Origin: Candidatus Saccharibacteria bacterium CPR2
GTDB lineage: Bacteria > Patescibacteriota > Saccharimonadia > Saccharimonadales > QWHN01
Direction of reading: 5' to 3'
Assembly (NCBI GenBank): GCA_021404905.1
Contig: QWHN01000004.1
Coordinates: forward strand, 1-46,121
DNA: 46,121 nt
Shown here in pieces: positions 3,799 through 42,173 of this stretch. Made by a program: the position numbers and the translations under genes. The notes under the pieces were generated by a model. The model was not told the DNA's origin. It searched no databases and worked only from the letters and a program-made list of their open reading frames with translations. Each line of letters begins with the position of its first letter. Within the stretch, counting starts at the first letter, position 1.

Positions 3799-5964
3799 AT
3801 GATTCTACTCGCACTATCTTATGTCCCAACGCTTATACTTCTAGTGATTTTAGCAGTATTTATATTGCAGAAGAACAGCAAAGATAGAAAAAATCGTATA
3901 TTCGCACTAATTTTGTTATTTGTAGCTTTATGGCTTGTGTCTCTATATATTGCTGATTCATCTAGTAATTTAAGTTTGAGCTTAGTGTCTCTAAGGTTTG
4001 CAATGTTTTTTACAAACATAATACCCCCACTCTTTATATTATTTGCATTTTCCTTCCCGAATTATCAAAAAATCTCAAAACTACTTACTGTGCTTATAAT
4101 ACTGCCTTCAGTAGTTCTAGCCCCACTATCTTTAACTGATTTAGTTGTTAGGGAAGTAGGTCATGATTTGATGGTAGCAGAACCTAAAAATGTAGGTCTT
4201 ATGTACACGTTAATTTTAACTTATTTCTTTATTTATAATTTGGCAGCGTTGTTTATTTTAATTAAAAAGCACAAATACGCAACTGGTTCTGAAAAAGCAC
4301 AAATCAAACTCATATTTATTAGCGCTTTAGTAGCAATATTATTAAATCTCGTCGGAAATTACCTCTTTGTTTTGCTTGGTATCTCAGAATTTGCAGTGTT
4401 ACTTAATGGCCCATCGATAGTACTACTAGCTATTGGAATTACTTATGCAATTATAAGACATAAGCTGTTTGATATTAGGCTTATTGTTGCTAGATCAGTT
4501 GCATATGTGTTAACAGTAGCAACTATCAGTTTGATATACGGTTTTGGAGCATTTTCCATTTTGGGTATTTTTATATTTCAAGACCAACAAATACCATTTT
4601 CTCAACAAATAGTTTACACGTTTTTGGCTATAACATTGGTCTTTACTTTCCAGCCAATTAAGAAATTTTTTGATAAGGTTTCAAATAAAATTTTTTACCG
4701 AGATGCATATGATTCGCAGGAATTGCTGGACAATCTCGGTTCATTGATTGTAGGGCAAATAGATCTTGATGTGATAATGAGTGAAACTCTGGAGCTTCTC
4801 AACGATGGTTTGCGTCCAACAAAAAGCGTCTTTCTGCTTACCGACGAAAACAATGAATTTTATAAAAGGTATGGGAACGCGGACTTTATACGTTCCAGGG
4901 AAAAAATGATTCTTAAGGATCTTGATAGCCAACAAAATACCGTTATGATTCTGGATGAAGAAACTGATGGCATGGAGTCTTGGAAGAATCTAAAAAAATA
5001 TGATGTAGCAGTAAGTGTAAGAATGAGCACAACTACGCAAACTGTCGGCTATCTGTTACTAGGGTCTAAAAAGAGCGGGAACATATACAGTTCTCAGGAT
5101 TCAAAACTGCTAAACATTGCTTCGAGCGAACTTGCGGTCGCTACTGAAAACGCGTTGCGATTCGATGAAATCCAGAAATTCAACATTACTTTGCAGAAAA
5201 AGATCGAAGATGCTACGGCACAACTGCGGCGCACTAATGAAAAACTTCGCGCGCTGGACGAGGCAAAAGACGAATTTATCAGCATGGCTTCGCATCAGTT
5301 ACGCACACCCCTTACGTCTATAAAAGGTTATGTATCTATGTTAATGGACGGCGATGCTGGTAAGCCTAACACGGCTCAAGCAAAGTTGTTGGGAGAAGCT
5401 TTTGCCAGCTCCCAGCGAATGGTGTATTTAATCGCAGATTTGCTTAATGTCTCACGTCTTAAAACTGGAAAATTTGTCATTGAACCTACAGACATATTTT
5501 TACCAAAAGTCGTACAAGGAGAGGTGAGCCAAGTTTTGCCCAGCGCTAAATCAAAACACATAACTCTTACATATGATGCGCCGAAACATTTTCCAATGGT
5601 GTCTTTAGATGAGACTAAAATTCGCCAGGTGATAATGAATTTTATAGACAATGCCATTTACTATACACCTCAAGGTGGCAAAATTGATGTTCAGCTAATT
5701 GCCAAAAAAGATGTGATTGAATACAAGGTAGTGGATAATGGTATTGGCGTGCCGAGAGACCAACAGTCGAAACTGTTTAGCAAATTCTTTCGGGCAGATA
5801 ATGCTAAAAAAGCACGCCCGGATGGGACTGGTTTAGGACTTTATATGGCAAGCAAGGTTGTATCGGCGCAAGGCGGCTCAATAATTTTCAGCTCAGAGGT
5901 AGGCAAGGGAAGCACATTTGGCTTCTCTTTTCCACTTTCAAAAGTAAAGGCGAAGAAGTCCTAG
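3799..5964 (+). CDS. Sensor histidine kinase: N-terminal 7TM region, GAF-like domain, HisKA, HATPase_c
   Basis: Multi-TM N-terminus; GAF-like VGYLLLGSKKSGNIYSSQD; H-box SMASHQLRTPLT; N-box NFIDNAIYY; DNGIG; GTGLGL. Confidence 0.93.
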   Translation: MILLALSYVPTLILLVILAVFILQKNSKDRKNRIFALILLFVALWLVSLYIADSSSNLSLSLVSLRFAMFFTNIIPPLFILFAFSFPNYQKISKLLTVLIILPSVVLAPLSLTDLVVREVGHDLMVAEPKNVGLMYTLILTYFFIYNLAALFILIKKHKYATGSEKAQIKLIFISALVAILLNLVGNYLFVLLGISEFAVLLNGPSIVLLAIGITYAIIRHKLFDIRLIVARSVAYVLTVATISLIYGFGAFSILGIFIFQDQQIPFSQQIVYTFLAITLVFTFQPIKKFFDKVSNKIFYRDAYDSQELLDNLGSLIVGQIDLDVIMSETLELLNDGLRPTKSVFLLTDENNEFYKRYGNADFIRSREKMILKDLDSQQNTVMILDEETDGMESWKNLKKYDVAVSVRMSTTTQTVGYLLLGSKKSGNIYSSQDSKLLNIASSELAVATENALRFDEIQKFNITLQKKIEDATAQLRRTNEKLRALDEAKDEFISMASHQLRTPLTSIKGYVSMLMDGDAGKPNTAQAKLLGEAFASSQRMVYLIADLLNVSRLKTGKFVIEPTDIFLPKVVQGEVSQVLPSAKSKHITLTYDAPKHFPMVSLDETKIRQVIMNFIDNAIYYTPQGGKIDVQLIAKKDVIEYKVVDNGIGVPRDQQSKLFSKFFRADNAKKARPDGTGLGLYMASKVVSAQGGSIIFSSEVGKGSTFGFSFPLSKVKAKKS

Positions 5965-6225: not shown

Positions 6226-6258
6226 TCTAATTTCCGAGGACAGTCCTTGGAAATTAGA
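6226..6258. repeat. REP-like palindrome (family A) upstream of RAYT
   Basis: TCTAATTTCCGAGGAC-A-GTCCTTGGAAATTAGA: 16-bp arms, one G.T pair, 1-nt centre. Confidence 0.85.
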
Positions 6259-6285: not shown

Positions 6286-6918
6286 ATGCCATCAAGAAAT
6301 ATCATCAAAGAATATGCATCGGATAGTTACTATCATGTTTACAATCGTGGCTTGAATAAATCAAAAATATTTCGCACAGATTATGATTATGCAGTTTTTT
6401 TAAATCTATTCAAAAGACATCTTAGTAAGAAACCGATACACGATAAAAAAGGGCGAGTGTACACACACTTAAGAAAAGATATTAAATTAACAGCTTTCTG
6501 CCTCATGCCAAACCATTTTCATCTTTTAATGTATCAGGAAGATGAACCACAGGCTCTCGTGACGATTATGCGTTGCGTTCTAACTAGTTATTCTAAATAT
6601 TTTAATAAGCGCTATAAAAGGGTTGGCCCGTTATTTCAAGCACGTTATAAAGCAGTTCGTATAACATCTGAGAGTTATTTGTGGCACATTTCACGTTATA
6701 TCCATTTAAATCCACTTGATATTGCAAGGGATTATAAGGCTTATCCATATTCTAGTTATCTTAACTTTACCGGAGAGCGTGATAGCGAATGGTTGAGCCC
6801 AGATATAATATTGGAAATGCATCGTGATGCAAATAACAATTACAAAAAATTTGTTGATGACTATATAAGTTATCGTGAGGATATAAGGGAATCTAAGTTT
6901 GAGCTAGCAAATTCCTAA
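6286..6918 (+). mobile_element. REP-associated tyrosine transposase (RAYT, Y1/HUH family)
   Basis: YYHVYNRG, IFR...DY..F, FCLMPNHFHLL (HUH), LFQARYKA, RYIHLNP (catalytic Tyr). Start moved from the ORF-track TTG (inside the palindrome) to the ATG at 6286. Confidence 0.9.
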
Positions 6919-6928
6919 GCATGACATT

Positions 6929-6951
6929 TTTCCAAGGACTGTCCTTGGAAA
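6929..6951. repeat. REP-like palindrome (family A) downstream of RAYT
   Basis: TTTCCAAGGAC-T-GTCCTTGGAAA, perfect 11-bp arms, followed by a partial extra arm (AACTTGGAAAT). Confidence 0.88.
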
Positions 6952-7008
6952 TAACTTGGAAATAAATGAAAAGAGGGTTTTTTATAGAGGGGTCTTATGA
7001 GGAAAAAG

Positions 7009-7186: not shown

Positions 7187-9031
7187 TTATTTTCCAAGCA
7201 GGCTGCTACGCAAAGCACGTCGGCTTACGAGCCAGCTTCGGATACCCATTCCAAGAGCGCTTGTACTGAAGAAACCAGCTAGCACGCTACCGATACCTGT
7301 GTTAGGAAGCTCCTTAGCAGGCGGTGTTACGGGCGGCTGCTCTAAAGGTTGAACTTGTACTTTCGCGGTACATATATCTTCCTTGGTTTGCCCATCTACA
7401 TTGAAGAGCAATTTAGCAGTCACGTCGTAGTTGCCAGGTGCGGCGTAAGTGTGCTCAACTACGGTTTTATCAGTGTGGAACGGTTCTGTCCCATCACCAA
7501 AGTTATAGACGATTTTACTCAATGTTACTTTTCCTTCTGTAGTGTAAGTTACGGTAAATTTAAACTTGTCTCTAGCTAATTGTTCTACACTAAGCGCAGT
7601 ACATTCAAATATCGGTGTAACTGGCTTGTCGTCAACTTTAACCTTGGTTTTACAGTTGTCGCTGGTTACTTCTTTAACCTTGCCATCAACGTCTACCATA
7701 GCCCATACAGTAGCGGTGTATTCACCAGGCTTGCTGTATTTATGCTCAACTTCGTTTTTATCGGTTTCAAAGTTATCGGTTTTATCACCAAAGTCAAATT
7801 TGTAACCTACGATTTTTGCTCCACCCTGGGCCGTAGCTTTAGCAGTAAGTTTGTATGTATCTTTGCTAATTGCTACCGCGCTTAGCGCGTCACAAGAATA
7901 GACAGGTTTTTCACATGGTGGTTGGTCGATTTTTACAAGTGCTGTGTCGTTGACAGCACCATATCCATCTGGAGTCGCAAATGCGTTGTTCCAGAGTTCG
8001 TGTTGACCACATTGTAGCTCTGCAACATCGTTAACTTTAGCTTTGAATATAACCCACGCATTAATGTCTGGGTCATAGTTACCAATATCAACGTTTATTT
8101 GCTTACCGTTTGCCTGAATAGCACTGTCTGGATACGTATATCCGCTTGGGTAATTGCCGTTGTAAAGTTTTACACTTCCAGGAACTGGAGTCATGTTGGC
8201 TGGAACTTCATCGACAATCTTTACGCTTTTTAGCTCGGTCTTTCCGATATTGTCAAATTCAATTCCCCACTCAACTGTGTCACCTGGTTTAGCGGTGACT
8301 TCATTTTTCCAATCTTTTGAAGTTTGCCCGTCAAATCGGACTAATTTGTTAATTTTGTAGTGAGGCATATTAACTTTTACCTTAAAGGTAACAGCTACAG
8401 CGAATTCAAAGCATCCTTTGACATCACCAATACTTACACCTTTTCCTACAAGTTCGTCTGATACGGGCTGATTAATGCCGTTACCTACGAGTTTTGCAGA
8501 ACCAGGAACAAAGTCAAACTGGAAAAATCCGCCGTTATCGGCTTTTAGGTCAACAGTAGACCAAACAGATTTAGGCTGTGCATTATCTGCGTTTATAGTA
8601 GCTTTGGCCTGTCCGGATTTGATGCTGCCTTGTGGCAACTCCACCTTGACGTTGGTGTTTTTTGCAATTCCCTGACCACTGGCGTTAAGTGAAGGGTCCG
8701 CGCCGTTATGAATATAAACGTGCATGGTAATTTCATCACCTTGGCGAAGTTGGGTGAGTGTTGGGTAATATGTCTGATTTTGGTCGGCATATTGCCCGTT
8801 AAAGAATTGTCTCTCGTCACCAAATTTTGGAACATTGGTGAAAGAGTTAAAGGTTACGTAGTCGAAACCAGGGGTTCCGGGCCCGTTATAAACCTTTGTA
8901 GGCCGATCTGGCCCAAATCCTGCCACAGCAACGGCGGTTAAGCCGGCCAAAGCAGCAACTGCAATTAGAGCAAAAACTGCTTTCTTTGGCAGACGTGATA
9001 GAAAGTTAGAACGTATTTTAATGCGTTTCAT
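7187..9031 (-). CDS. Sortase-anchored surface protein with DUF11-like and two PKD domains, LPNTG motif
   Basis: Signal-like N-terminus; AKPGDTVEWGIEFDNIG..KIVDEVP (DUF11-like); two DFGD...H.Y..PG.Y PKD repeats; LPNTG + hydrophobic stretch + basic tail. The ATG at 9031 fits the AAGGAG spacing. Confidence 0.85.
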   Translation of the reverse strand: MKRIKIRSNFLSRLPKKAVFALIAVAALAGLTAVAVAGFGPDRPTKVYNGPGTPGFDYVTFNSFTNVPKFGDERQFFNGQYADQNQTYYPTLTQLRQGDEITMHVYIHNGADPSLNASGQGIAKNTNVKVELPQGSIKSGQAKATINADNAQPKSVWSTVDLKADNGGFFQFDFVPGSAKLVGNGINQPVSDELVGKGVSIGDVKGCFEFAVAVTFKVKVNMPHYKINKLVRFDGQTSKDWKNEVTAKPGDTVEWGIEFDNIGKTELKSVKIVDEVPANMTPVPGSVKLYNGNYPSGYTYPDSAIQANGKQINVDIGNYDPDINAWVIFKAKVNDVAELQCGQHELWNNAFATPDGYGAVNDTALVKIDQPPCEKPVYSCDALSAVAISKDTYKLTAKATAQGGAKIVGYKFDFGDKTDNFETDKNEVEHKYSKPGEYTATVWAMVDVDGKVKEVTSDNCKTKVKVDDKPVTPIFECTALSVEQLARDKFKFTVTYTTEGKVTLSKIVYNFGDGTEPFHTDKTVVEHTYAAPGNYDVTAKLLFNVDGQTKEDICTAKVQVQPLEQPPVTPPAKELPNTGIGSVLAGFFSTSALGMGIRSWLVSRRALRSSLLGK

Positions 9032-9066
9032 GACTATCATCTCCTTTCGTTAGATTAATTTATTTG

Positions 9067-9099
9067 CAAGGTCTGTCCCCGAAACAAGGACAGACCTTG
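9067..9099. repeat. REP-like palindrome (family A variant, AGGACAGACC)
   Basis: CAAGGTCTGTCC-ccgaaacaa-GGACAGACCTTG, perfect 12-bp arms. Confidence 0.75.
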
Positions 9100-17113: not shown

Positions 17114-18601
17114 ATGCCAAACCCGGAATCAACACAACAAACAGAAATACTACAAGAGAAGACTATAGAGCAAGAAACAGACAATCTGAGATTTAAAAGA
17201 ATCAAAAGTTTAATAGGTAAAGTAGCTTTATCGTTGACACTGGTAACTGGCGCGGGAATCGGAGCTGTTGCAGAAGAAGTAGTTAATCCACAGCCGGCAG
17301 AAGCTACAGAATTTGTTAATGATTATCCGAATTTAAATGCAAGCCCATATAATCCATCTGCCTATGAATGGTGGGTTGACGAAAACGGCAATGGCCATCC
17401 AGATGTTAACAATGAACTTATAAGTCCACGTAATTACTATTACCGTAATTGTACTGACGGTGCTGCATATTGGACAGCTAAATATACAGGAGTTAATGTT
17501 ACGGGATGGGGTAATGCTGTAAATTGGGATAATGCTGCTACTGCTTACACTGTAAAACCTGGTAATTCAAATAGCATTGAGCCGGGAGATATTGCCCAGA
17601 GTGACGATGATGGATACTATGGTCATGTAGGTTTTGTGGCAAATGTGGCTAAAGACGCAAGCGGTAACATTACAGCTGTTAATGTTGCGGAACTAAATAA
17701 AGTGGGTACGGGAGAATATAGTTACAGCACATATACATCAAAAAATGCTTCTGGAAAATTTACTCGTGGTGGCACAAAAGACTGGGATCATTTTATAGAT
17801 GTCAATGGAGCTGGCAAAGGGCTGAATGGCGATGTCTTGGGGGGTGGCAACAATGGTGGCAGTGGCGGAAATGGCAACGGCGGAGGCAGCAACGGCATTG
17901 ACACTATAGGTGTTTATAATCCCAATATTGCTACTTTCGATTTACGCAACAGCAACACAACAGGGATTCATGACGTAACACTAGCATATGGAAATATTGG
18001 AGCTGTGGCTCTAACCGGCGACTGGAACGGAGATGGCATTGACACCATCGGTGTCTATAACCCAAGTTTGGCAACATTCGATCTGCGCAATAGTAACACA
18101 ACTGGAAACCATGATATAACTCTTGCTTATGGTAATATTGGCGCGAAACCCCTAGTCGGAGATTGGAATGGTGACGGCATAGATACGATTGGAGTGTATA
18201 ATCCAACACTCGGTACATTTGATCTCAGAAATAGTAATACAACCGGCAATCATGATATAACCCTAGCGTACGGAAACATTGGTGCCATTCCGCTTGTAGG
18301 AGATTGGAACGGGGATGGTATAGACACGATCGGCGTGTACAACCCAAGTTTAGCCACCTTTGATCTACGAAATAGCAATACCACTGGTATCCACGACATT
18401 ACTCTAGCTTATGGAAATATAGGCGCCATCCCTGTGGTCGGAGATTGGAATGGTGACGGCATAGATACTATAGGTGTATATAACCCTACACTTGGCACCT
18501 TTGATCTACGAAATAGCAATACAACAGGTAACCATGACATCACTCTTGCATACGGAAATATTGGTGCCAAGCCGATTATAGGCGACTGGAACGGACAATA
18601 A
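17114..18601 (+). CDS. CHAP-domain peptidoglycan hydrolase with five 47-aa FG-GAP-like (GDWNGDG) repeats
   Basis: CHAP motifs RNCTD, GWGNA..W and YGHVGFV; Gly/Asn linker; five GIDTIGVYNP...GDWNGD repeats. Confidence 0.88.
   Translation: MPNPESTQQTEILQEKTIEQETDNLRFKRIKSLIGKVALSLTLVTGAGIGAVAEEVVNPQPAEATEFVNDYPNLNASPYNPSAYEWWVDENGNGHPDVNNELISPRNYYYRNCTDGAAYWTAKYTGVNVTGWGNAVNWDNAATAYTVKPGNSNSIEPGDIAQSDDDGYYGHVGFVANVAKDASGNITAVNVAELNKVGTGEYSYSTYTSKNASGKFTRGGTKDWDHFIDVNGAGKGLNGDVLGGGNNGGSGGNGNGGGSNGIDTIGVYNPNIATFDLRNSNTTGIHDVTLAYGNIGAVALTGDWNGDGIDTIGVYNPSLATFDLRNSNTTGNHDITLAYGNIGAKPLVGDWNGDGIDTIGVYNPTLGTFDLRNSNTTGNHDITLAYGNIGAIPLVGDWNGDGIDTIGVYNPSLATFDLRNSNTTGIHDITLAYGNIGAIPVVGDWNGDGIDTIGVYNPTLGTFDLRNSNTTGNHDITLAYGNIGAKPIIGDWNGQ
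17894..18598 (+). repeat. Five tandem 141-bp coding repeats
   Basis: 5 x 141 bp exactly fills 17894-18598; near-identical protein, many synonymous differences. Confidence 0.9.
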
Positions 18602-35566: not shown

Positions 35567-35607
35567 AGAACGATACACAAATTTTCGCAGAAAGTTTTAT
35601 CTGTCAA

Positions 35608-35680
35608 TCAAGGACAGACCCTGTAAATAACAGAGGTATCCTATATTTCCAAGTATTTACAAGGACTGTCCTTGGAAATT
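35608..35680. repeat. REP-like cluster (19-mer TCAAGGACAGACCCTGTAA + family A palindrome)
   Basis: 19-mer at 35608-35626 is identical to 39896-39914; CAAGGAC-T-GTCCTTG at 35660-35674. Confidence 0.8.
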
Positions 35681-35753
35681 ACCTAGAAATTATATTAAAA
35701 GTATGCAGCAAATATTGTTAGATAACTCGTTGTTTTTGTCTTGATAGGTGTTG

Positions 35754-36875
35754 CTAATATGTATTTTGTTCAAACTTGGCATCAAATTGTTGTAATGTAG
35801 TTGCATCATAGGTCCCGTAGTCGCTATTAAGCTCAACCATATTAGCTCCCATGGTAGCTTCTGCCCAATTTAGAGTATTAATCCAGTTGCCGATCTTGTT
35901 GCTTGTTGCGGTTTGGAAAGTAATCGGAGCACCTTTCGATTTCATATGTGAATACATAACGGTGTAATTATCGCCAAGCGGGCTGGAAGTAGTGGATGCG
36001 TCCCGAATTGAATTATTAGCAAGAACGCAACGGTTCCCAAGAGTTTGTCGGCAATAGTCCATCAGTGAATTAGTAAAATTAACATCCATACTTACAGTGT
36101 TGTTGTCATTGATAGCTTGGTATGGATTAAGCGCTATACTACTTCGGGTATATTTATATATGCTATGAGCTGCAATCTGATCTTTTTGACACTGCTTGTC
36201 TTTTTCTAGCGTAAATCCTGCTGCATGTAGATTAGTAATATTTCTAGTATCGCTGGCGCCTCTAATGAGCGGTTCAGCATACACCGTCATACAGCCGTTT
36301 ATAGTAATATCGCGAACATAAGGGCTTCTATCAAACCACGCAGAAATCTTTTTATGTAGATCTGTGTACGCCCTTTTATAATTTGGAGTCCAAAAGCGGG
36401 GAATTTGATAAGATGGCTGTTTTGCATCCTCGGGTTCATAATAGGTGACTGGTGATCCATCTAGGTTTTTAACCCACGTTGGGCTTTTATCACCCGCAAA
36501 AATCCGTAGCTTAATCGTGGCCTTTTTTAATTTAGCGGCGTCAATAGCCGACTTGATTTTATCGGGCACAAATCCGCTTGCTGATGCAGGTTGCAAATCA
36601 CTCCAATTAATGTTTACAACATAGCTGTTGATGAAGCTAGTGTGGCTTGTAGGTGGGCCACTCCGCGTTGCGACACCTTGAATGGGTGGCTTAAGACTGG
36701 ATACTAAACCTGTTGCGGCAAAACTTCTTATTACCAGGTATCCCACCACTCCCGTAATTAGCATAATTATTGCAAGCTGCATTGGGCTAAAAGATCGCAT
36801 AATGCGTACTTTCAGCACTTTATTTTTAATATTTGCTAAAAATTTTTTATTTTTTCTGGATGTTGCTTTTCTCAT
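35754..36875 (-). CDS. Membrane-anchored extracellular glycoside-hydrolase-like protein (TIM-barrel, clan A-like)
   Basis: N-terminal basic region + TM; INWSDLQP, IKLRIFAG..SPTWV, IPRFWTP.Y..AY, GCMTVYAEP; antisense to the glycolytic cluster. Confidence 0.6.
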   Translation of the reverse strand: MRKATSRKNKKFLANIKNKVLKVRIMRSFSPMQLAIIMLITGVVGYLVIRSFAATGLVSSLKPPIQGVATRSGPPTSHTSFINSYVVNINWSDLQPASASGFVPDKIKSAIDAAKLKKATIKLRIFAGDKSPTWVKNLDGSPVTYYEPEDAKQPSYQIPRFWTPNYKRAYTDLHKKISAWFDRSPYVRDITINGCMTVYAEPLIRGASDTRNITNLHAAGFTLEKDKQCQKDQIAAHSIYKYTRSSIALNPYQAINDNNTVSMDVNFTNSLMDYCRQTLGNRCVLANNSIRDASTTSSPLGDNYTVMYSHMKSKGAPITFQTATSNKIGNWINTLNWAEATMGANMVELNSDYGTYDATTLQQFDAKFEQNTY

Positions 36876-36960
36876 AACGGCCTTCGTTTATATTAATGAA
36901 CTTATTTAATCACAAGCGTATTGTAGTTGATTGAACTGTATCTGCATAGATGATAGGGGA

Positions 36961-37030
36961 ATTTCCAAGGACTGTCCTTGGAAATGAGAAACCTGTTCAT
37001 TTATTGCCCGATTTTTTGTCCGATCGGACA
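36961..37030. repeat. Family A palindrome + TGTCCGATCGGACA palindrome
   Basis: ATTTCCAAGGAC-T-GTCCTTGGAAAT (36961-36985, perfect) and a perfect 14-bp palindrome at 37017-37030. Confidence 0.85.
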
Positions 37031-37151
37031 TCAAAATGGGCAAGTTGGTGATTTGTAATTTAGGGGGATTTTAATGATAAATCCATTTACATTTATTAGT
37101 TTAAGCGTGATACAATTTTTAGTGAATAAAAACTAAAATAACGGTGGGATT

Positions 37152-39581
37152 ATGGATAAACAAAACGCTTGGATTTTGTGGCTGGATCAACTGAGTAATG
37201 ATGATGTGGGCCTTGTTGGTGGCAAAAACGCGTCACTCGGCGAGATGTACACCCAATTAACACCTAAAGGCATCAAAATCCCAAACGCTTTTGTTGTCAC
37301 CTCAAACGGATACAAGCACTTCGTGCAAACGACTGGTTTGGCGGAAAAAATAAAGTCTGAACTGGCCGAACTTAAAATAGAAGACGTTCATTCGCTTCAA
37401 GAAACTGGCAAGAGTATAAGGGAGGCCTTTCTAAGTGTAAATTTTCCGGAAGATTTGGCGGCTCAAGTACGTGAAAATTATCGACATCTTTGCAATGATG
37501 CTGGAGTGGAAAACATCGACACCGCCGTGCGTTCAAGCGCGACCGCGGAAGATTTGCCTGGAGCATCTTTCGCGGGTGAGCACGAAACATTTTTAAATGT
37601 ATCTGGCGATGAAAATGTTTTAAACGCCATAAAAGGTTGTTTCGCGTCGCTTTTTACAGACAGAGCAATTTCTTATCGCGTAGACAAGGGTTTTGACCAC
37701 CTTGACATTTATCTATCTGTTGGAATTCAACGCATGGTTCATTCCGATCGTGCTTCTAGTGGGGTAATGTTTTCTCTTGATACAGAGAGTGGTTTTCGTG
37801 ACGTGGTTCAAATTACTAGCGCATGGGGACTAGGAGAAATGGTTGTTCAGGGCAAGGTTGTGCCAGATGAATTTATGGTTTATAAACCGTCACTAAAGCG
37901 CACTTTGCCGGGAATAATTAAGAAAAATCTTGGGCCCAAAGCAACGAAAATGATTTACGATACGTCCGAAAACGCCGAGCGTCCGGTGAAAGAAGTGGAT
38001 GTTCCAGCGGAAGATAGAAAGAAGTTTTCCATTTCAGACGATGAGGTTTTGACTCTAGCGCGTTGGGCGGTGGCAATTGAAGACCACTACACCGAACGTG
38101 CCGGCAAAGATATGCCAATGGATATGGAATGGGCAAAAGACGGTGTTAGTGGAGAGCTTTATATTGTCCAGGCTAGACCCGAGACGGTTCAGGCAGAAAA
38201 GAAAGGCTTTATCCACGAAGAATATCAGCTTCAGGAAACCGGCGAGATAATATCTGAAGGCATTTCGGTTGGAACGAAAATAGCTACCGGCAAAGCAAAA
38301 ATTATTCTCTCTACGGGACACCTGGACGAATTTAACGAAGGTGAAATTTTGTTCACCGAAATTACTGACCCCGACTGGGAACCAATAATGAAAAAAGCTT
38401 CGGCAATTGTGACTGAAAAAGGCGGGCGCACATCGCACGCAGCGATTGTCTCGCGCGAGCTTGGAATTCCGGCGGTGGTTGGCGCTGAGGGTGTTCTGGA
38501 TAAGATAAAAACCGGTGATGAAGTAACCATCGATACGTCTTCAGGTGATGTTGGCAAAATATATTCGGGAACATTGAAGTTTGACAAAAAAGTTTATGAG
38601 CTTAATAAAATTCCAGAGATTAAGACCAAAATAGCCATGAATATCGGCACTCCAGACGGCGCGTTTATGCATTCCAAGCTGCCCCATAAAGGCGTGGGGC
38701 TAGCGAGAGAAGAATTTATTATTGCTTCCCAGATACAGGTACATCCAAATGCATTAATAAATTATGAAACTTTAGAAAATGAAGAATTAAAACGAAAAAT
38801 TGACGATATTACCACTGGTTACGAAAGTAAAACGGATTTTTACGTTCACAAACTTGCTCAAGGAATAGCCCAAATTGGGGCGGCTTTCGCGCCCGAGCAA
38901 GTAATAGTTAGATTTTCAGATTTTAAAACCAATGAGTATCGTGCCTTGCTTGGTGGAGATTTATACGAGCCGAAAGAAGAAAATCCAATGCTTGGTTGGC
39001 GGGGTGCGTCGCGTTACTATCACAAAGATTTTAAAGATGCTTTCAAGCTGGAATGCCAGGCGATAAAGATTGTCCGCGAGGAGTTTGGGTTGACCAATGT
39101 TCAAGTAATGGTGCCGTTTTGCAGGACTCCCGAAGAAGGCAAAAAAGTCGTTGAGGTGGTAGAAGAAGCCGGGCTAAAACGCGGCGATGGTGAGCATGGG
39201 CTCAAAATATACGTTATGTGCGAGATTCCAACCAATGTAATTCGCGCGGATGATTTCCTGGAAATATTTGATGGGTTTTCTATTGGTTCAAATGATTTAG
39301 CGCAATTAACTCTTGGGATGGATAGGGACTCGAGTGTAATTTCTGGTATTTCTAATGAAAATGACAAAGCTGTAAAGTCACTAGTTTCTAGAGCCATAAA
39401 AATTTGTCATGAAAAAGGCAAATACATTGGTTTTTGTGGACAAGCACCATCAGATTATCCGGAATTCTTTAGATTTTTAGTAAGCCAAGGCATAGACACA
39501 ATTTCGCTCAATCCAGATTCAGTGATTCCGATGATACTTGAGGCAGAGAAGGTTGAGGCCCAGATTGGCAATAACGAGTAA
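37152..39581 (+). CDS. ppsA: Phosphoenolpyruvate synthase
   Basis: VGGKNASLGEM, AVRSSATAEDLP.ASFAG, QARPETV, GGRTSHAAI (phospho-His), EENPMLGWRGA, FSIGSNDL, FCGQAPSDYP. Confidence 0.97.
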   Translation: MDKQNAWILWLDQLSNDDVGLVGGKNASLGEMYTQLTPKGIKIPNAFVVTSNGYKHFVQTTGLAEKIKSELAELKIEDVHSLQETGKSIREAFLSVNFPEDLAAQVRENYRHLCNDAGVENIDTAVRSSATAEDLPGASFAGEHETFLNVSGDENVLNAIKGCFASLFTDRAISYRVDKGFDHLDIYLSVGIQRMVHSDRASSGVMFSLDTESGFRDVVQITSAWGLGEMVVQGKVVPDEFMVYKPSLKRTLPGIIKKNLGPKATKMIYDTSENAERPVKEVDVPAEDRKKFSISDDEVLTLARWAVAIEDHYTERAGKDMPMDMEWAKDGVSGELYIVQARPETVQAEKKGFIHEEYQLQETGEIISEGISVGTKIATGKAKIILSTGHLDEFNEGEILFTEITDPDWEPIMKKASAIVTEKGGRTSHAAIVSRELGIPAVVGAEGVLDKIKTGDEVTIDTSSGDVGKIYSGTLKFDKKVYELNKIPEIKTKIAMNIGTPDGAFMHSKLPHKGVGLAREEFIIASQIQVHPNALINYETLENEELKRKIDDITTGYESKTDFYVHKLAQGIAQIGAAFAPEQVIVRFSDFKTNEYRALLGGDLYEPKEENPMLGWRGASRYYHKDFKDAFKLECQAIKIVREEFGLTNVQVMVPFCRTPEEGKKVVEVVEEAGLKRGDGEHGLKIYVMCEIPTNVIRADDFLEIFDGFSIGSNDLAQLTLGMDRDSSVISGISNENDKAVKSLVSRAIKICHEKGKYIGFCGQAPSDYPEFFRFLVSQGIDTISLNPDSVIPMILEAEKVEAQIGNNE

Positions 39582-39602
39582 AGCTGACGCTTTAAGAGAT
39601 TA

Positions 39603-39712
39603 GCAAAACTTGCGTTTTGCATTTTCTCTCTTCTTTTGTACCGACACTCCCAAGTTAAAAGTCTTCGACTTTTTGAACTTCATACTTTTTCTCATCAGCA
39701 AGAAAAAGTATG
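39603..39712. repeat. Cluster of three AT-rich hairpins after ppsA (first is terminator-like)
   Basis: GCAAAAC/GTTTTGC (39603-39620), AAAAGTC/GACTTTT (39657-39673), CATACTTTTTCT/AGAAAAAGTATG (39681-39712). Confidence 0.6.
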
Positions 39713-39932
39713 CAAAAAGTGCCGCCCCGATCAAAAACATGCCTTATACTTCAGTCTCGCCAAAAACAGACTGTGATTTGCGGAACGACCCTAAAGGGTT
39801 CGCCCTCGCTAACACTCGGGTGGTCCTCACCCCAATCTGTTTTGGCTCAACTTCCGCAAAGGTGTTTTTGAGAAGGGATAAATAATGAAGGATCTTCAAG
39901 GACAGACCCTGTAATTACCAACTGATTATGGA

Positions 39933-40235
39933 CTACATATCGAAGTCACCCATAATTTCATCAAGTTTGGTGCGTAGTTCTTCCTCAGTTTTTGGCAAAC
40001 CAGCTAAAGTTTTTCCAATTATATCTGCATCGAAATGGTCTGGCCAAACCTCTGGCGGGATAGGGTTCTCTACCCACGGCCCGACTCTAATTGCTAGGGG
40101 ATCATACCAATCATCCTCTGTAGACGGTCGTTCTTCTTTATTGTCGCTAAAGGTGTTCATAGCAGTTTGAGCGATTTTCTTAATAATTTGCTTTGGGAAA
40201 AACTCTTTTGCTTCTGGCTTGTCCAATTCAAACAT
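39933..40235 (-). CDS. Small acidic hypothetical protein
   Basis: 100-aa ORF with ATG, antisense to its neighbours, bounded by REP-like repeats. Confidence 0.55.
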   Translation of the reverse strand: MFELDKPEAKEFFPKQIIKKIAQTAMNTFSDNKEERPSTEDDWYDPLAIRVGPWVENPIPPEVWPDHFDADIIGKTLAGLPKTEEELRTKLDEIMGDFDM

Positions 40236-40410
40236 TTAGGGTTATACTCCATTTTCATTTTAGCATAGATGTTACTGTTAATATTTTGTATTAGTCCGTT
40301 AGTCATAACATATTGGATTACCAATGATTTAATCAGAGTATGTCAAGCAAGGTTTCTAAAAAGTTTTTGGCCTGAAACAAACACGTCAAAGTAACAACTG
40401 CAAGCTTTGC

Positions 40411-40497
40411 TTTCCAAGTTCCGTCCAAGGACAGTCCTTGGAAATAGATAACGAGACAATCTCCACACTTATGTGTCCGATCGGACATATAAGTGTG
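40411..40497. repeat. Family A palindrome + extended TGTCCGATCGGACA palindrome
   Basis: CCAAGGAC-A-GTCCTTGG (40425-40441); CACACTTATGTGTCCGA/TCGGACATATAAGTGTG (40464-40497), 17-bp arms with one mismatch. Confidence 0.85.
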
Positions 40498-40923
40498 TAT
40501 GGTTAATTGCTTTTTCTTTGTAAGCATTTGGGACAATCCTATCTCGAAAACACTTTTTGTATAAGTTGCGGTAAAAACAAATTGCTTCCAAGACCTACTA
40601 TTTTTTGCCAGACTCTGAAAGTTCCCATCGTCGCTAAAGCTATGGTGGGCAGGCCTGATGAAAAGAATGTCAAAATAACAATAATTGCGTAAGTGTGTCT
40701 GAGCACTACTTAGCTTTAGCGAAGGAGGGCGAGTTCGCTGAAGCATTGTTATTATGACAATGAAATAATCAAGAACTGGAAGCGTCTGTCGGCTTTGGAC
40801 TCAGGCGTTTGCCGAAACAAATGGTGGCAAATAAATCAAATCGGTAGATTTGACAACCTCATTGTCGGAGACAAATCCCTCCTCTTTTGGTATCATTACA
40901 AAGACTTTTCGAGTAAAAAAAAT

Positions 40924-42117
40924 ATGTTTCACAAAAAAACCATTCGTGATGTTCCGATTGATAATAAATCTGTTTTAGTGCGGGTAGATTACAATGTTCC
41001 ACTGGAGGAAGACGGCACTATTGCTGATGATTTTCGAATCCGGCAATCTCTTGAAACGCTAAAGTATTTAATTAAACGGAAATGTAAAATTACTATTTGC
41101 TCGCATCTGGGTCGTCCGGAAGGCAAACCAGATAAAAAATATTCACTGGAACGAGTAGCCGAGCGTTTGCAAAAATTGATCGGTATTGAAGTTATTTTTG
41201 TAGACGAAGCAGTTGGCGACAGGGCATTTATCACCCGAAAAAAACAGACTACTAATGAAATCATTATGTTAGAAAATTTGAGATTTGACGCGCGAGAAGA
41301 AGGAAATGACGCGCATTTCGCCAAAGAACTGGTCAAAAATGCCGAGTATTTTGTGCAAGACGGTTTTGGAGTTGTGCACCGCGCACACGCGTCAACGGAC
41401 GCGATAACACATTATTTACCAGGTGTAGCAGGATTCTTGCTTGAAAAGGAAGTATCGACAATTTTAGGCGCCATGAAATCGCCCAAACATCCGGTAATAT
41501 CAATCGTTGGCGGTGCAAAAATAAAAGACAAAATCGACGTGATAAAAAACTTTATGAAAATATCTGAAACAGTAATAGTCGGCGGCGTGATGGCGAATAC
41601 TTTAATGGTGGCCAAGGGATATGGGGTTGGTAACAGTAAATATGAGGACGAAGAAATCCCCGAGGCAAATCACCTGCTCGAACATGCTGCAGAAAATGAT
41701 TGCGAGCTTTTTGTGCCGCACGAAGATGTCGCGGTGGGCGATAAATTTGATGAAACCGCTAAGCGGCGCGAAATAGATATAGAAGACGTTAAGTCGAATG
41801 ATATTATCATGGATTTTGGCCGCAAGACGATGGAGGAAGTTTGCCACAATATTTCAAACGCGCACACAGTATTTTGGAATGGCCCTCTCGGAGTAATCGA
41901 ATTTAAAAATTTTAACTGGGCGACCACAAAGCTTTCCGAATGCATTGCTGCCAATAATCACTTGACCAGTATCGTTGGCGGTGGAGATACCACTGGATTC
42001 ATTGATGAACTTGGCATGAGAGATAAATTTACTCATGTTTCCACCGGCGGAGGTGCCAGCTTGGAACTCATGGCAGGATACAAATTGCCTGGAATCGAAG
42101 CCCTTTTAGATTCTTAA
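40924..42117 (+). CDS. pgk: Phosphoglycerate kinase
   Basis: VRVDYNVP, DDFRI, SHLGRP, LENLRF, DGFGVVHRAHAS, GGAKI, FWNGPLG, GGGDT, STGGGASLE. Start trimmed to the ATG at 40924. Confidence 0.97.
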   Translation: MFHKKTIRDVPIDNKSVLVRVDYNVPLEEDGTIADDFRIRQSLETLKYLIKRKCKITICSHLGRPEGKPDKKYSLERVAERLQKLIGIEVIFVDEAVGDRAFITRKKQTTNEIIMLENLRFDAREEGNDAHFAKELVKNAEYFVQDGFGVVHRAHASTDAITHYLPGVAGFLLEKEVSTILGAMKSPKHPVISIVGGAKIKDKIDVIKNFMKISETVIVGGVMANTLMVAKGYGVGNSKYEDEEIPEANHLLEHAAENDCELFVPHEDVAVGDKFDETAKRREIDIEDVKSNDIIMDFGRKTMEEVCHNISNAHTVFWNGPLGVIEFKNFNWATTKLSECIAANNHLTSIVGGGDTTGFIDELGMRDKFTHVSTGGGASLELMAGYKLPGIEALLDS

Positions 42118-42150: not shown

Positions 42151-42173
42151 TTTGCAAGGAGGCTCCTTGCAAA
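42151..42173. repeat. Family A palindrome variant
   Basis: TTTGCAAGGAG-G-CTCCTTGCAAA, perfect 11-bp arms with the same CAAGGA-N3-TCCTTG core. Confidence 0.65.

Follow-up and report, generated by a model that had tools for sequence, protein, structure and literature searches.

Rare REP hairpins of three classes accompany small insertions in a glycolytic operon of a Saccharibacteria genome

Introduction

We looked at two small antisense genes, and at the short hairpin repeats beside them, in a 46,121-nt stretch of DNA from Candidatus Saccharibacteria bacterium CPR2 (contig QWHN01000004.1 of assembly GCA_021404905.1), hereafter the window. The two genes lie inside a glycolytic operon, in the segment running from ldh through ppsA and pgk to tpi. 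The repeats are of the repetitive extragenic palindromic (REP) type, and one class of them also flanks a gene for a REP-associated tyrosine transposase (RAYT-1) on the same contig. A preliminary description of this DNA had proposed that RAYT-1 delivered both genes as REP-bounded cassettes. We favor another reading, to which we give a probability of about 0.55, namely that the ldh-tpi segment is a REP-rich hotspot of small insertions and not a pair of cassettes delivered by a RAYT. The operon is otherwise compact and co-directional, and two lineage-specific segments have been inserted into it, one at ldh|ppsA and one at ppsA|pgk. Since three REP classes cluster there, one of them cognate to a second RAYT (RAYT-2), the clustering appears to be a property of the region rather than the cargo of one enzyme.

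Results

Empty sites in related operons

The window is the entire contig C7 of a genome of 829 kb (G000; nine contigs, C1 to C9; 40% G+C), and its sequence occurs in sludge and bioreactor metagenomes. Positions below refer to the window unless another contig is named, and a strand is given where a feature was assigned one. The + strand cluster comprises the genes for pyruvate kinase, glycerate kinase (DUF4147/MOFRL), enolase, a 2-hydroxyacid dehydrogenase (ldh), phosphoenolpyruvate synthase (ppsA), pgk and tpi. The two genes in question, at 35754-36875 and 39933-40235, are indeed antisense within it, on the - strand with all neighbours on the + strand. The resident operon gene ppsA (37152..39581, +) is followed by a terminator at 39603-39620, and the names attached to its homologues are Parcubacteria, Paceibacterota and Yonathbacteria, which are Patescibacteria lineages other than Saccharibacteria and so agree with the phylum but not with the class. 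Homology with the relative L021 places the true start of pgk (40924..42117, +) at the ATG at 40924.

For the comparison, we used a species set in which this genome is the sole member of its family and all 300 sampled relatives share its order only, as well as Logan or metagenome contigs and fetched loci, which bear L numbers. The closest relative found was L021, a Logan contig collinear with the window from pyruvate kinase to uvrD, whose ppsA is 87% identical as protein and 74-77% as DNA. Its genes are spaced ldh-[554 bp]-ppsA-[60 bp]-pgk-[25 bp]-tpi, versus 1535, 1329 and 118 bp in the window. Over 18 kb, L021 lacks any antisense gene as well as the class A and pal14 palindromes described below. 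In L022 (75%), ldh and ppsA are 55 bp apart and the first antisense gene is absent, and relatives at 69-71% (L060-L062) have tight, co-directional glxK-ppsA-eno-ldh operons. The search for empty sites, suggested at the outset as a check, found both genes missing at these positions, and from these alignments we conclude that both are derived insertions. The pgk-tpi spacer gained about 93 bp, which hold no gene and a class C REP only.

The empty ldh-ppsA spacer of L021 carries an exact 22-nt copy of the class B REP and a second copy (B') 62 nt further on, the pair sitting just upstream of the conserved ppsA promoter. No REP was found in its ppsA-pgk spacer. Since a neutral 22-mer at 75% background identity survives unchanged with a probability of about 0.2%, class B must be either constrained or re-seeded, and its presence in an empty spacer indicates that the REP at ldh|ppsA either predates the gene or does not depend on it. 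The same L021 spacer (5170-5400) contains a near-consensus promoter (TTGACA-17-TATATT), followed about 150 nt later by a hairpin resembling an intrinsic terminator. This segment is absent from the window and could be a small RNA gene.

Strains about 99% identical to the window keep both genes. Excision or empty-site variants were looked for in Logan contigs of four DNA and four RNA runs, and none was seen: all were collinear, and the apparent 'joints' were other REP loci. Between these strains, single nucleotide polymorphisms (SNPs) in ppsA are densely clustered (37196-37421 and 38702-38783), which suggests recombination tracts. The adjoining segment with the first antisense gene has only four differing positions.

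REP classes and their rarity

About 25 REP-like hairpins of four classes were found in the 829 kb. REPs occupy 13 of the 787 spacers (6% of the spacers of at least 150 bp); they are rare, and the possibility raised earlier that such motifs sit in most intergenic regions is not what the genome displays.

Class A, in its full form, is the perfect 23-nt palindrome TTTCCAAGGACWGTCCTTGGAAA; the genome has five copies, all of them on C7. Its core CCAAGGACWGTCCTTGG occurs at 6234 (1 mismatch), 6932, 35659 (1 mismatch), 36965 and 40425, with a chance expectation of 0.00. The copies at 36965 and 40425 are the palindromes that the preliminary description had centred at 36973 and 40433, and those at 6234 and 6932 are the ones it had placed on either side of the RAYT gene. 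The upstream flank of RAYT-1 reads TTTCCGAGGACAGTCCTTGGAAA (6231..6253) and the downstream flank bears an extra half-site (6929..6962, ..GGAAAtaACTTGGAAA). The copy at 36962..36984 is identical over 24 nt to that at 6929. The remaining two are extended and on the - strand, at 35646..35678 (tttccaagta + TTTACAAGGACTGTCCTTGGAAA), a copy overlooked in the preliminary description, and at 40411..40444 (tttccaagttc + CGTCCAAGGACAGTCCTTGGAAA). The extra half-site, ACTTGGAAA, is found on one side in three copies (6929, 35656 and 40422). The 5' flanks read ..ctaa, ..catt, ..agta, ..ggaa and ..gttc, and no class A hairpin is followed by a U-tract. The class A 21-mer was detected in 27 metagenome stretches, in 33 copies; four of these stretches flank RAYT genes that are 31-45% identical to RAYT-1. 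Fourteen of the 33 copies are inside open reading frames (ORFs) of recurrent sizes (293-299, 493-519 and 96 aa).

Class B is the family of the 19-mer TCAAGGACAGACCCTGTAA, which had been reported beside each antisense gene and does occur there, exactly, at 35608 and 39896, against 0.04 chance matches expected when up to 3 mismatches are allowed. It is an imperfect derivative, a hairpin like that of class A in which positions 4/20 have undergone a compensatory change and two mismatches are fixed. There are about nine copies: doublets at C1:23504/23543 and C5:1604/1663, which have no gene inside, two copies in uvrC, a 16-nt core in ligA and two in the window. The first of the latter, an imperfect hairpin (35605..35627, +), is the first arm of an inverted, REPIN-like (REP doublet) pair whose second arm is the class A copy at 35646..35678, and the 39 nt from 35607 to 35645 are 95% identical to the doublet at C1:23503. 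The second (39893..39915, +) follows the stop codon of the 100-aa gene (39933-40235) at a distance of 19 nt, against 128 nt for class B and the other antisense gene; this second copy and its flank together make up a terminator-like hairpin on the - strand. The class B 18-mer gave two hits among 185,579 species genomes, in unrelated organisms, which we took as chance. Inverted class B-like half-sites (CAAGGTCTGTCC..GGACAGACCTTG) also form a 12-bp hairpin at 9064-9099, within a spacer of 487 bp that lies upstream of the gene at 7187-9040.

Class C, TTTGCAAGGAGGCTCCTTGCAAA, has five copies genome-wide. The one in the window (42151..42173, in the pgk-tpi spacer) was not in the earlier account and is cognate to RAYT-2. 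Class D, TGCAGGGWGSCWCCCTGCA, has four copies (C1:23614/23658, C1:85937 and C2:6141) and no cognate RAYT in the assembly.

REP-like hairpins were also found within coding sequences of DNA repair and replication genes. The two class B copies in uvrC (C1:50411 and 50472) are in different frames, the core in ligA (C1:62924) encodes QGQTLF, and uvrD of the relative G026 (L077) has two REP-like palindromes of other classes, with the cores CAAGGACAGTCCTTG and CAAGGCCCGGCCTTG.

RAYT-1, RAYT-2 and their palindromes

RAYT-1 (6289..6918, +) encodes a 209-aa class 2 Y1 HUH nuclease with HFH at residues 76-78 and RYIHLNP at 136-142. It scored 34.1 bits against Pfam Y1_Tnp, above the cut-off of 23, and 53.2 bits against the NCBIfam equivalog REP_Tyr_transpos, below the cut-off of 80. 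The Y---NP signature marks class 2 TnpA-Y1 enzymes (PMC6006769). Residues H76, H78, Y137, N141 and P142 are invariant across 12 homologues, and by its sequence RAYT-1 looks catalytically intact. A phmmer search with RAYT-1 alone matched no chain of the PDB; the family profile matched the structures of IS200/IS605 TnpA only, and weakly (ISDra2 TnpA 2XM3, E = 0.03). The identification of this gene as a RAYT was upheld by the Y1_Tnp score, by the two motifs (HUH and Y---NP) and by the presence of its 23-nt palindrome on each side.

Homologues of about 208 aa, 45-58% identical to RAYT-1, are present in 89 of 301 genomes of the order, with 1-8 copies each. At most of the 30 homologue loci fetched, the RAYT stands between perfect palindromes of the form TTTCCAAGG-N5-CCTTGGAAA, whose cores vary with the lineage and co-vary across about 30 loci. 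RAYT-1 has cognate palindromes on both sides (6231-6253 and 6929-6951), as do RAYT genes at four metagenome loci. RAYT-2 (L056; C5:385518-386303), 52% identical to RAYT-1, sits between palindromes of its own class C, TTGCAAGGAGSCTCCTTGCAA. Since the HUH and Y---NP motifs, the palindromes on both sides and an order-wide layout with lineage-specific cores occur together, the sequences indicate that RAYT-1 and its palindromes are a genuine REP/RAYT-type system, atypical in lacking a GTAG tag and in having perfect stems and a very low copy number. The RAYT homologues of L081, L082 and L102 are just 31-33% identical to RAYT-1 and have the same CCAAGGACWGTCCTTGG core in their flanks, meaning that the hairpin is far more conserved than the enzyme or was repeatedly adopted.

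The pal14 palindromes

The third motif described beside both genes belongs to a family of 34-40-nt palindromes that we call pal14, with the core TGTCCGATCGGACA, seven copies and no relation to the REP classes. The core is present, exactly as first described, at 37017 and 40474, 44 and 41 nt from the class A palindrome centres. Two types of arms were seen, TTGCCC..TTTT / AAAA..GGGCAA and CACACTTAT / ATAAGTGTG. The copy at 37004..37043 reads TTGCCC-N-TGTCCGATCGGACA-N-GGGCAA, and that at 40464..40497 is a variant with the second type of arms. The other five copies (C5:298641, C5:299214, C5:286555, C2:14853 and C9:81633) are at loci with no class A or B REP. Of the seven copies, five are in divergent promoter regions, and two stand on either side of a gene for a 167-aa protein with a PaaX_M (Cas2-like) domain (C5:298689-299192), beside pilin and prepilin-peptidase genes. 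From this distribution, pal14 is probably an operator-like site, and possibly the operator of the PaaX-like regulator whose gene it brackets. A duplicated composite module of class A and pal14 was considered and rejected, as the alignment matches at the two motifs only and the spacers are unrelated.

The single end architecture that had been proposed for both genes did not hold, the genome-wide census having resolved it into three independent repeat families with different distributions. What stood of that interpretation were the REP hairpins cognate to a RAYT-like Y1 HUH gene and the empty sites.

Contents of the two inserts

The insert at ldh|ppsA contains the gene at 35754..36875 (-), a lineage-specific insertion encoding a 373-aa protein without a Pfam match. 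Its predicted model (mean pLDDT, the confidence score of the prediction, 88) is a membrane-anchored (beta/alpha)8 barrel of the glycoside hydrolase (GH) clan A-like TIM-barrel type. Because the best structural matches of the model are GH35, GH5 and beta-amylase enzymes, the label 'GH-like' given to the protein at first is valid at the level of the fold. The closest homologues are 48-50% identical and encoded in clusters of fn3/dockerin surface proteins, and no REPs were found beside them in the other genomes. Metatranscriptome contigs from RNA runs cover 35741-36274, part of the gene. Aligned with L021, this insert has its right border at about 37060-37095, near pal14, and its left border is masked by divergence and the resident class B REP. 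A supposed 373-aa paralogue at C5:240079-241200, adjoining a non-coding element related to one described below, is actually tsaD.

The insert at ppsA|pgk is about 1.3 kb long: homology with L021 stops at about 39556-39622 and restarts at 40886. It exceeds the 0.6 kb bounded by the motifs (39896-40487), by about 270 bp to the left of class B and about 390 bp to the right of pal14. Its contents are mosaic: a structured non-coding element, the class B REP, the 100-aa gene, the extended class A REP, pal14 and a repeat fragment. The gene (39933..40235, -) encodes an acidic orphan protein that matched only itself among 5.8 billion proteins; a single remote homologue shares 46% identity with it over 54 aa. 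The non-coding element (39666..39877, about 210 nt) lies downstream of ppsA, within DNA missing from L021. It has a paralogue at C5:241240-241450 (L055), downstream of tsaD and about 75-80% identical, with a compensatory hairpin change between the copies (CATAC..GTATG versus CCTAC..GTAGG). Folding gave z-scores of -4.6 (+ strand) and -6.7 (- strand). Several other genomes of the order also carry the hairpin of this element, ACTTTTTC-loop-GAAAAAGT with GCAAAAAG-GCCGCC after it, some of them more than once, and its stem bases covary. No Rfam family was found in 39.5-40.9 kb at either gathering or permissive thresholds. By direct sequence comparison, the repeat fragment (40753..40797, +) matches, at 27 of 29 nt, the promoter-like flank that this hairpin element has in other Saccharibacteria (L072, L069).

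Elsewhere in the window, the ORF 17114-18601 contains five tandem repeats of 141 nt, 71-74% identical to each other (17892-18596).

Discussion

A proposed REP-rich hotspot and its alternatives

The reading of the ldh-tpi segment as a hotspot could be accounted for as follows. The class 2 Y1 HUH enzymes of this genome would nick and rejoin single-stranded REP hairpins, and new REP copies would thereby be seeded nearby, in those few spacers that are long or prone to hairpins. New antisense genes may have made such spacers, or may have landed beside REPs already there, and resident REPs may also have been landing pads for the inserts. The REPs may now act as 3' hairpins or as insulators between the sense operon and the antisense genes. 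In the published REPtrons of Marinomonas, REPs are concentrated near tnpA, which was read as local multiplication (PMC8266576).

Several points weigh against this reading. Every true spacer from ldh to tpi bears a REP, beyond what the availability of spacers explains, and since REPs are so rare and yet fill all of these gaps, their clustering is real. The dispersed class A copies, three in number, all lie directly beside the two inserted genes, and two of them are 41-44 nt from a pal14 core (chance estimate about 3 in 10,000). Both genes share one polarity: class B, the gene on the - strand, class A, pal14. REP-gene-REP arrangements exist in unrelated metagenome contigs, L082 (REP-RAYT-REP-TPR gene-REP) and L101 (REP-NUDIX-REP). 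The nearest relative, at 74-77% nucleotide identity, is too diverged for exact insertion junctions to be read, and the terminator or insulator role of the REPs and the operator role of pal14 are ones that we infer from sequence.

Much of this is also what speaks for the idea first put forward, in which cassettes running from class B to class A, with or without pal14, were excised as single-stranded DNA (ssDNA) by RAYT-1 and pasted in trans. The TnpA of IS200/IS605 moves whatever stands between its left-end and right-end hairpins. The relatives have empty sites, the motifs are alike in order and polarity around two unrelated genes, the dispersed class A copies are found only at these genes and on the same 46-kb contig as a seemingly intact RAYT-1, L082 and L101 show comparable arrangements, and REPs are too rare for such adjacency to arise through chance. 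However, neither unit has a second copy in its own genome or among the 5.8 billion proteins, and class B is already in the empty site of L021. The borders of the second insert lie about 270 and 390 bp beyond the motifs, with other elements inside, and pal14 is an independent family. The units also differ, with a doublet and a simple class A copy in one and a single class B and an extended class A copy in the other, and the next spacer (pgk-tpi) has the REP class of another RAYT without cargo. Among the matches listed, which cover about 7 of 10 genomes of the order, REP pairs less than 3 kb apart enclosed only RAYT genes, except for one pair inside uvrD and one that was non-coding; no REP-bracketed non-RAYT gene was among them. 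RAYTs are not known to move genes, and REP mobilisation itself is mechanistically unproven (PMC8266576). Delivery of genes by a RAYT seems, on the sequences compared, a less economical reading than a REP-rich hotspot, and we regard it as distinctly unlikely.

REPs are documented as insertion-sequence targets and as recombination hotspots, and the resident hairpins may have served as target or short homology, foreign or relocated DNA being inserted via REP-REP recombination in natural transformation or via a hairpin-targeting insertion. The REPs would then mark the site and not the ends of a unit. The class B doublet of L021, upstream of the ppsA promoter, is at the present site of the GH-like segment, and the second REP there in the window (35646-35678) combines the TTTACAAGGAC arm of class B and of B' in L021 with the right arm of class A. 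In addition, the mosaic SNP tracts of ppsA between strains imply that recombination is active in the region. Against these stand the ppsA-pgk spacer of L021, which has no REP, and the other junction, where the reciprocal hybrid REP that we considered as a recombination scar is absent, the right-hand REP at 36962 being pure class A. The 'hybrid' is moreover one base off class A and so may be a point mutation. We consider landing pads of this kind unlikely. Regulatory convergence, in which each antisense gene separately recruited a class B 3' hairpin, a class A upstream element and a pal14 operator, with no footprint of mobility, would fit the position of class B 19 and 128 nt downstream of the stop codons and its terminator-like form on the - strand, the preference of pal14 for divergent promoter regions and for the PaaX-like regulator gene, and the 100% conservation of class B versus about 75% in the flanking DNA. 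The class A hairpins, however, have no U-tract and are demonstrably a RAYT-cognate repeat, and the exact identities over 19-23 nt argue for copying and not for convergence, which makes this explanation very unlikely.

What the locus may be used for

A bolder conjecture can be attached to these data, which we hold to be quite improbable. In Saccharibacteria, the untagged, perfect-palindrome REPs of a RAYT-like clade specific to the candidate phyla radiation (CPR) would serve as portable ends or docking sites for single-gene cassettes, and the Y1 nuclease, or REP-REP exchange of ssDNA, would slot accessory genes between the genes of essential operons. This would be a hairpin-based gene capture, functionally analogous to integron cassettes and driven by an HUH enzyme. 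If true, a RAYT that moves genes would be a new route of gene gain, relevant to the ultra-small, transposon-poor genomes of Saccharibacteria. Irrespective of that conjecture, the locus shows clearly how small insertions have opened a compact essential operon at three junctions in a row. All of these insertions carry very rare REPs, of three classes, and a relative about 25% diverged has an orthologous REP unchanged in its empty site. The three REP-decorated insertions and the unchanged REP make it a good small test case for whether REPs are footprints, targets or vehicles of insertion.

Comparison with known systems

IS200/IS605 elements and their transposase-less derivatives, the palindrome-associated transposable elements (PATEs), move by 'peel and paste' single-strand transposition. 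The RAYT-type branch of this superfamily is regarded as domesticated and as spreading at most its own hairpins of 20-40 nt; we know of no evidence that it is mobile. Like these elements, the units studied here have a coding sequence with subterminal hairpins at the borders, and RAYT-1 is of the same enzyme superfamily, its family profile being the one that weakly matches ISDra2 TnpA. Contrarily to them, neither unit is multi-copy, the unit borders show no conserved tetranucleotide of the cleavage or target type, and the insert borders are off the hairpins, at least for the second insert.

The cassettes of integrons, an ORF with a folded attC site, resemble the units in being single, unrelated and mostly orphan genes with a short imperfect palindrome that folds in ssDNA. 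Here, however, no integrase/attI platform adjoins the units, and no recombinase gene was found in 30-46 kb of the window. The units are not arrayed, ppsA lying between them, their hairpins are RAYT-cognate REPs and not attC sites, and the genes appear to have their own upstream regions.

The REPtrons to which we compared the system are the REPs, or bacterial interspersed mosaic elements (BIMEs), and RAYTs (TnpAREP) of E. coli, Stenotrophomonas, Marinomonas and Pseudomonas (PMC8266576, PMC3116915, PMC3337134). Those studied require a conserved tetranucleotide, GTAG (or CGTC), at the 5' foot of the REP (PMC8266576), and neither is present 5' of the class A hairpins. Further differences are the perfect stems of class A, a genome with about 25 REPs (5 of class A) and not hundreds, the score of RAYT-1 under the NCBIfam equivalog cut-off, the REP-like copies within the coding sequences of uvrC and ligA, and class A copies in divergent promoter spacers, an unusual location for a classical REP. 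The likenesses are nonetheless those of layout: a low-copy class 2 Y1 HUH gene with the Y---NP signature stands between its own palindromes, more copies are dispersed between genes, some as inverted, REPIN-like doublets, distinct REP classes pair with distinct RAYT paralogues within one genome and, as in the REPtrons of Marinomonas, the REPs are concentrated near the gene.

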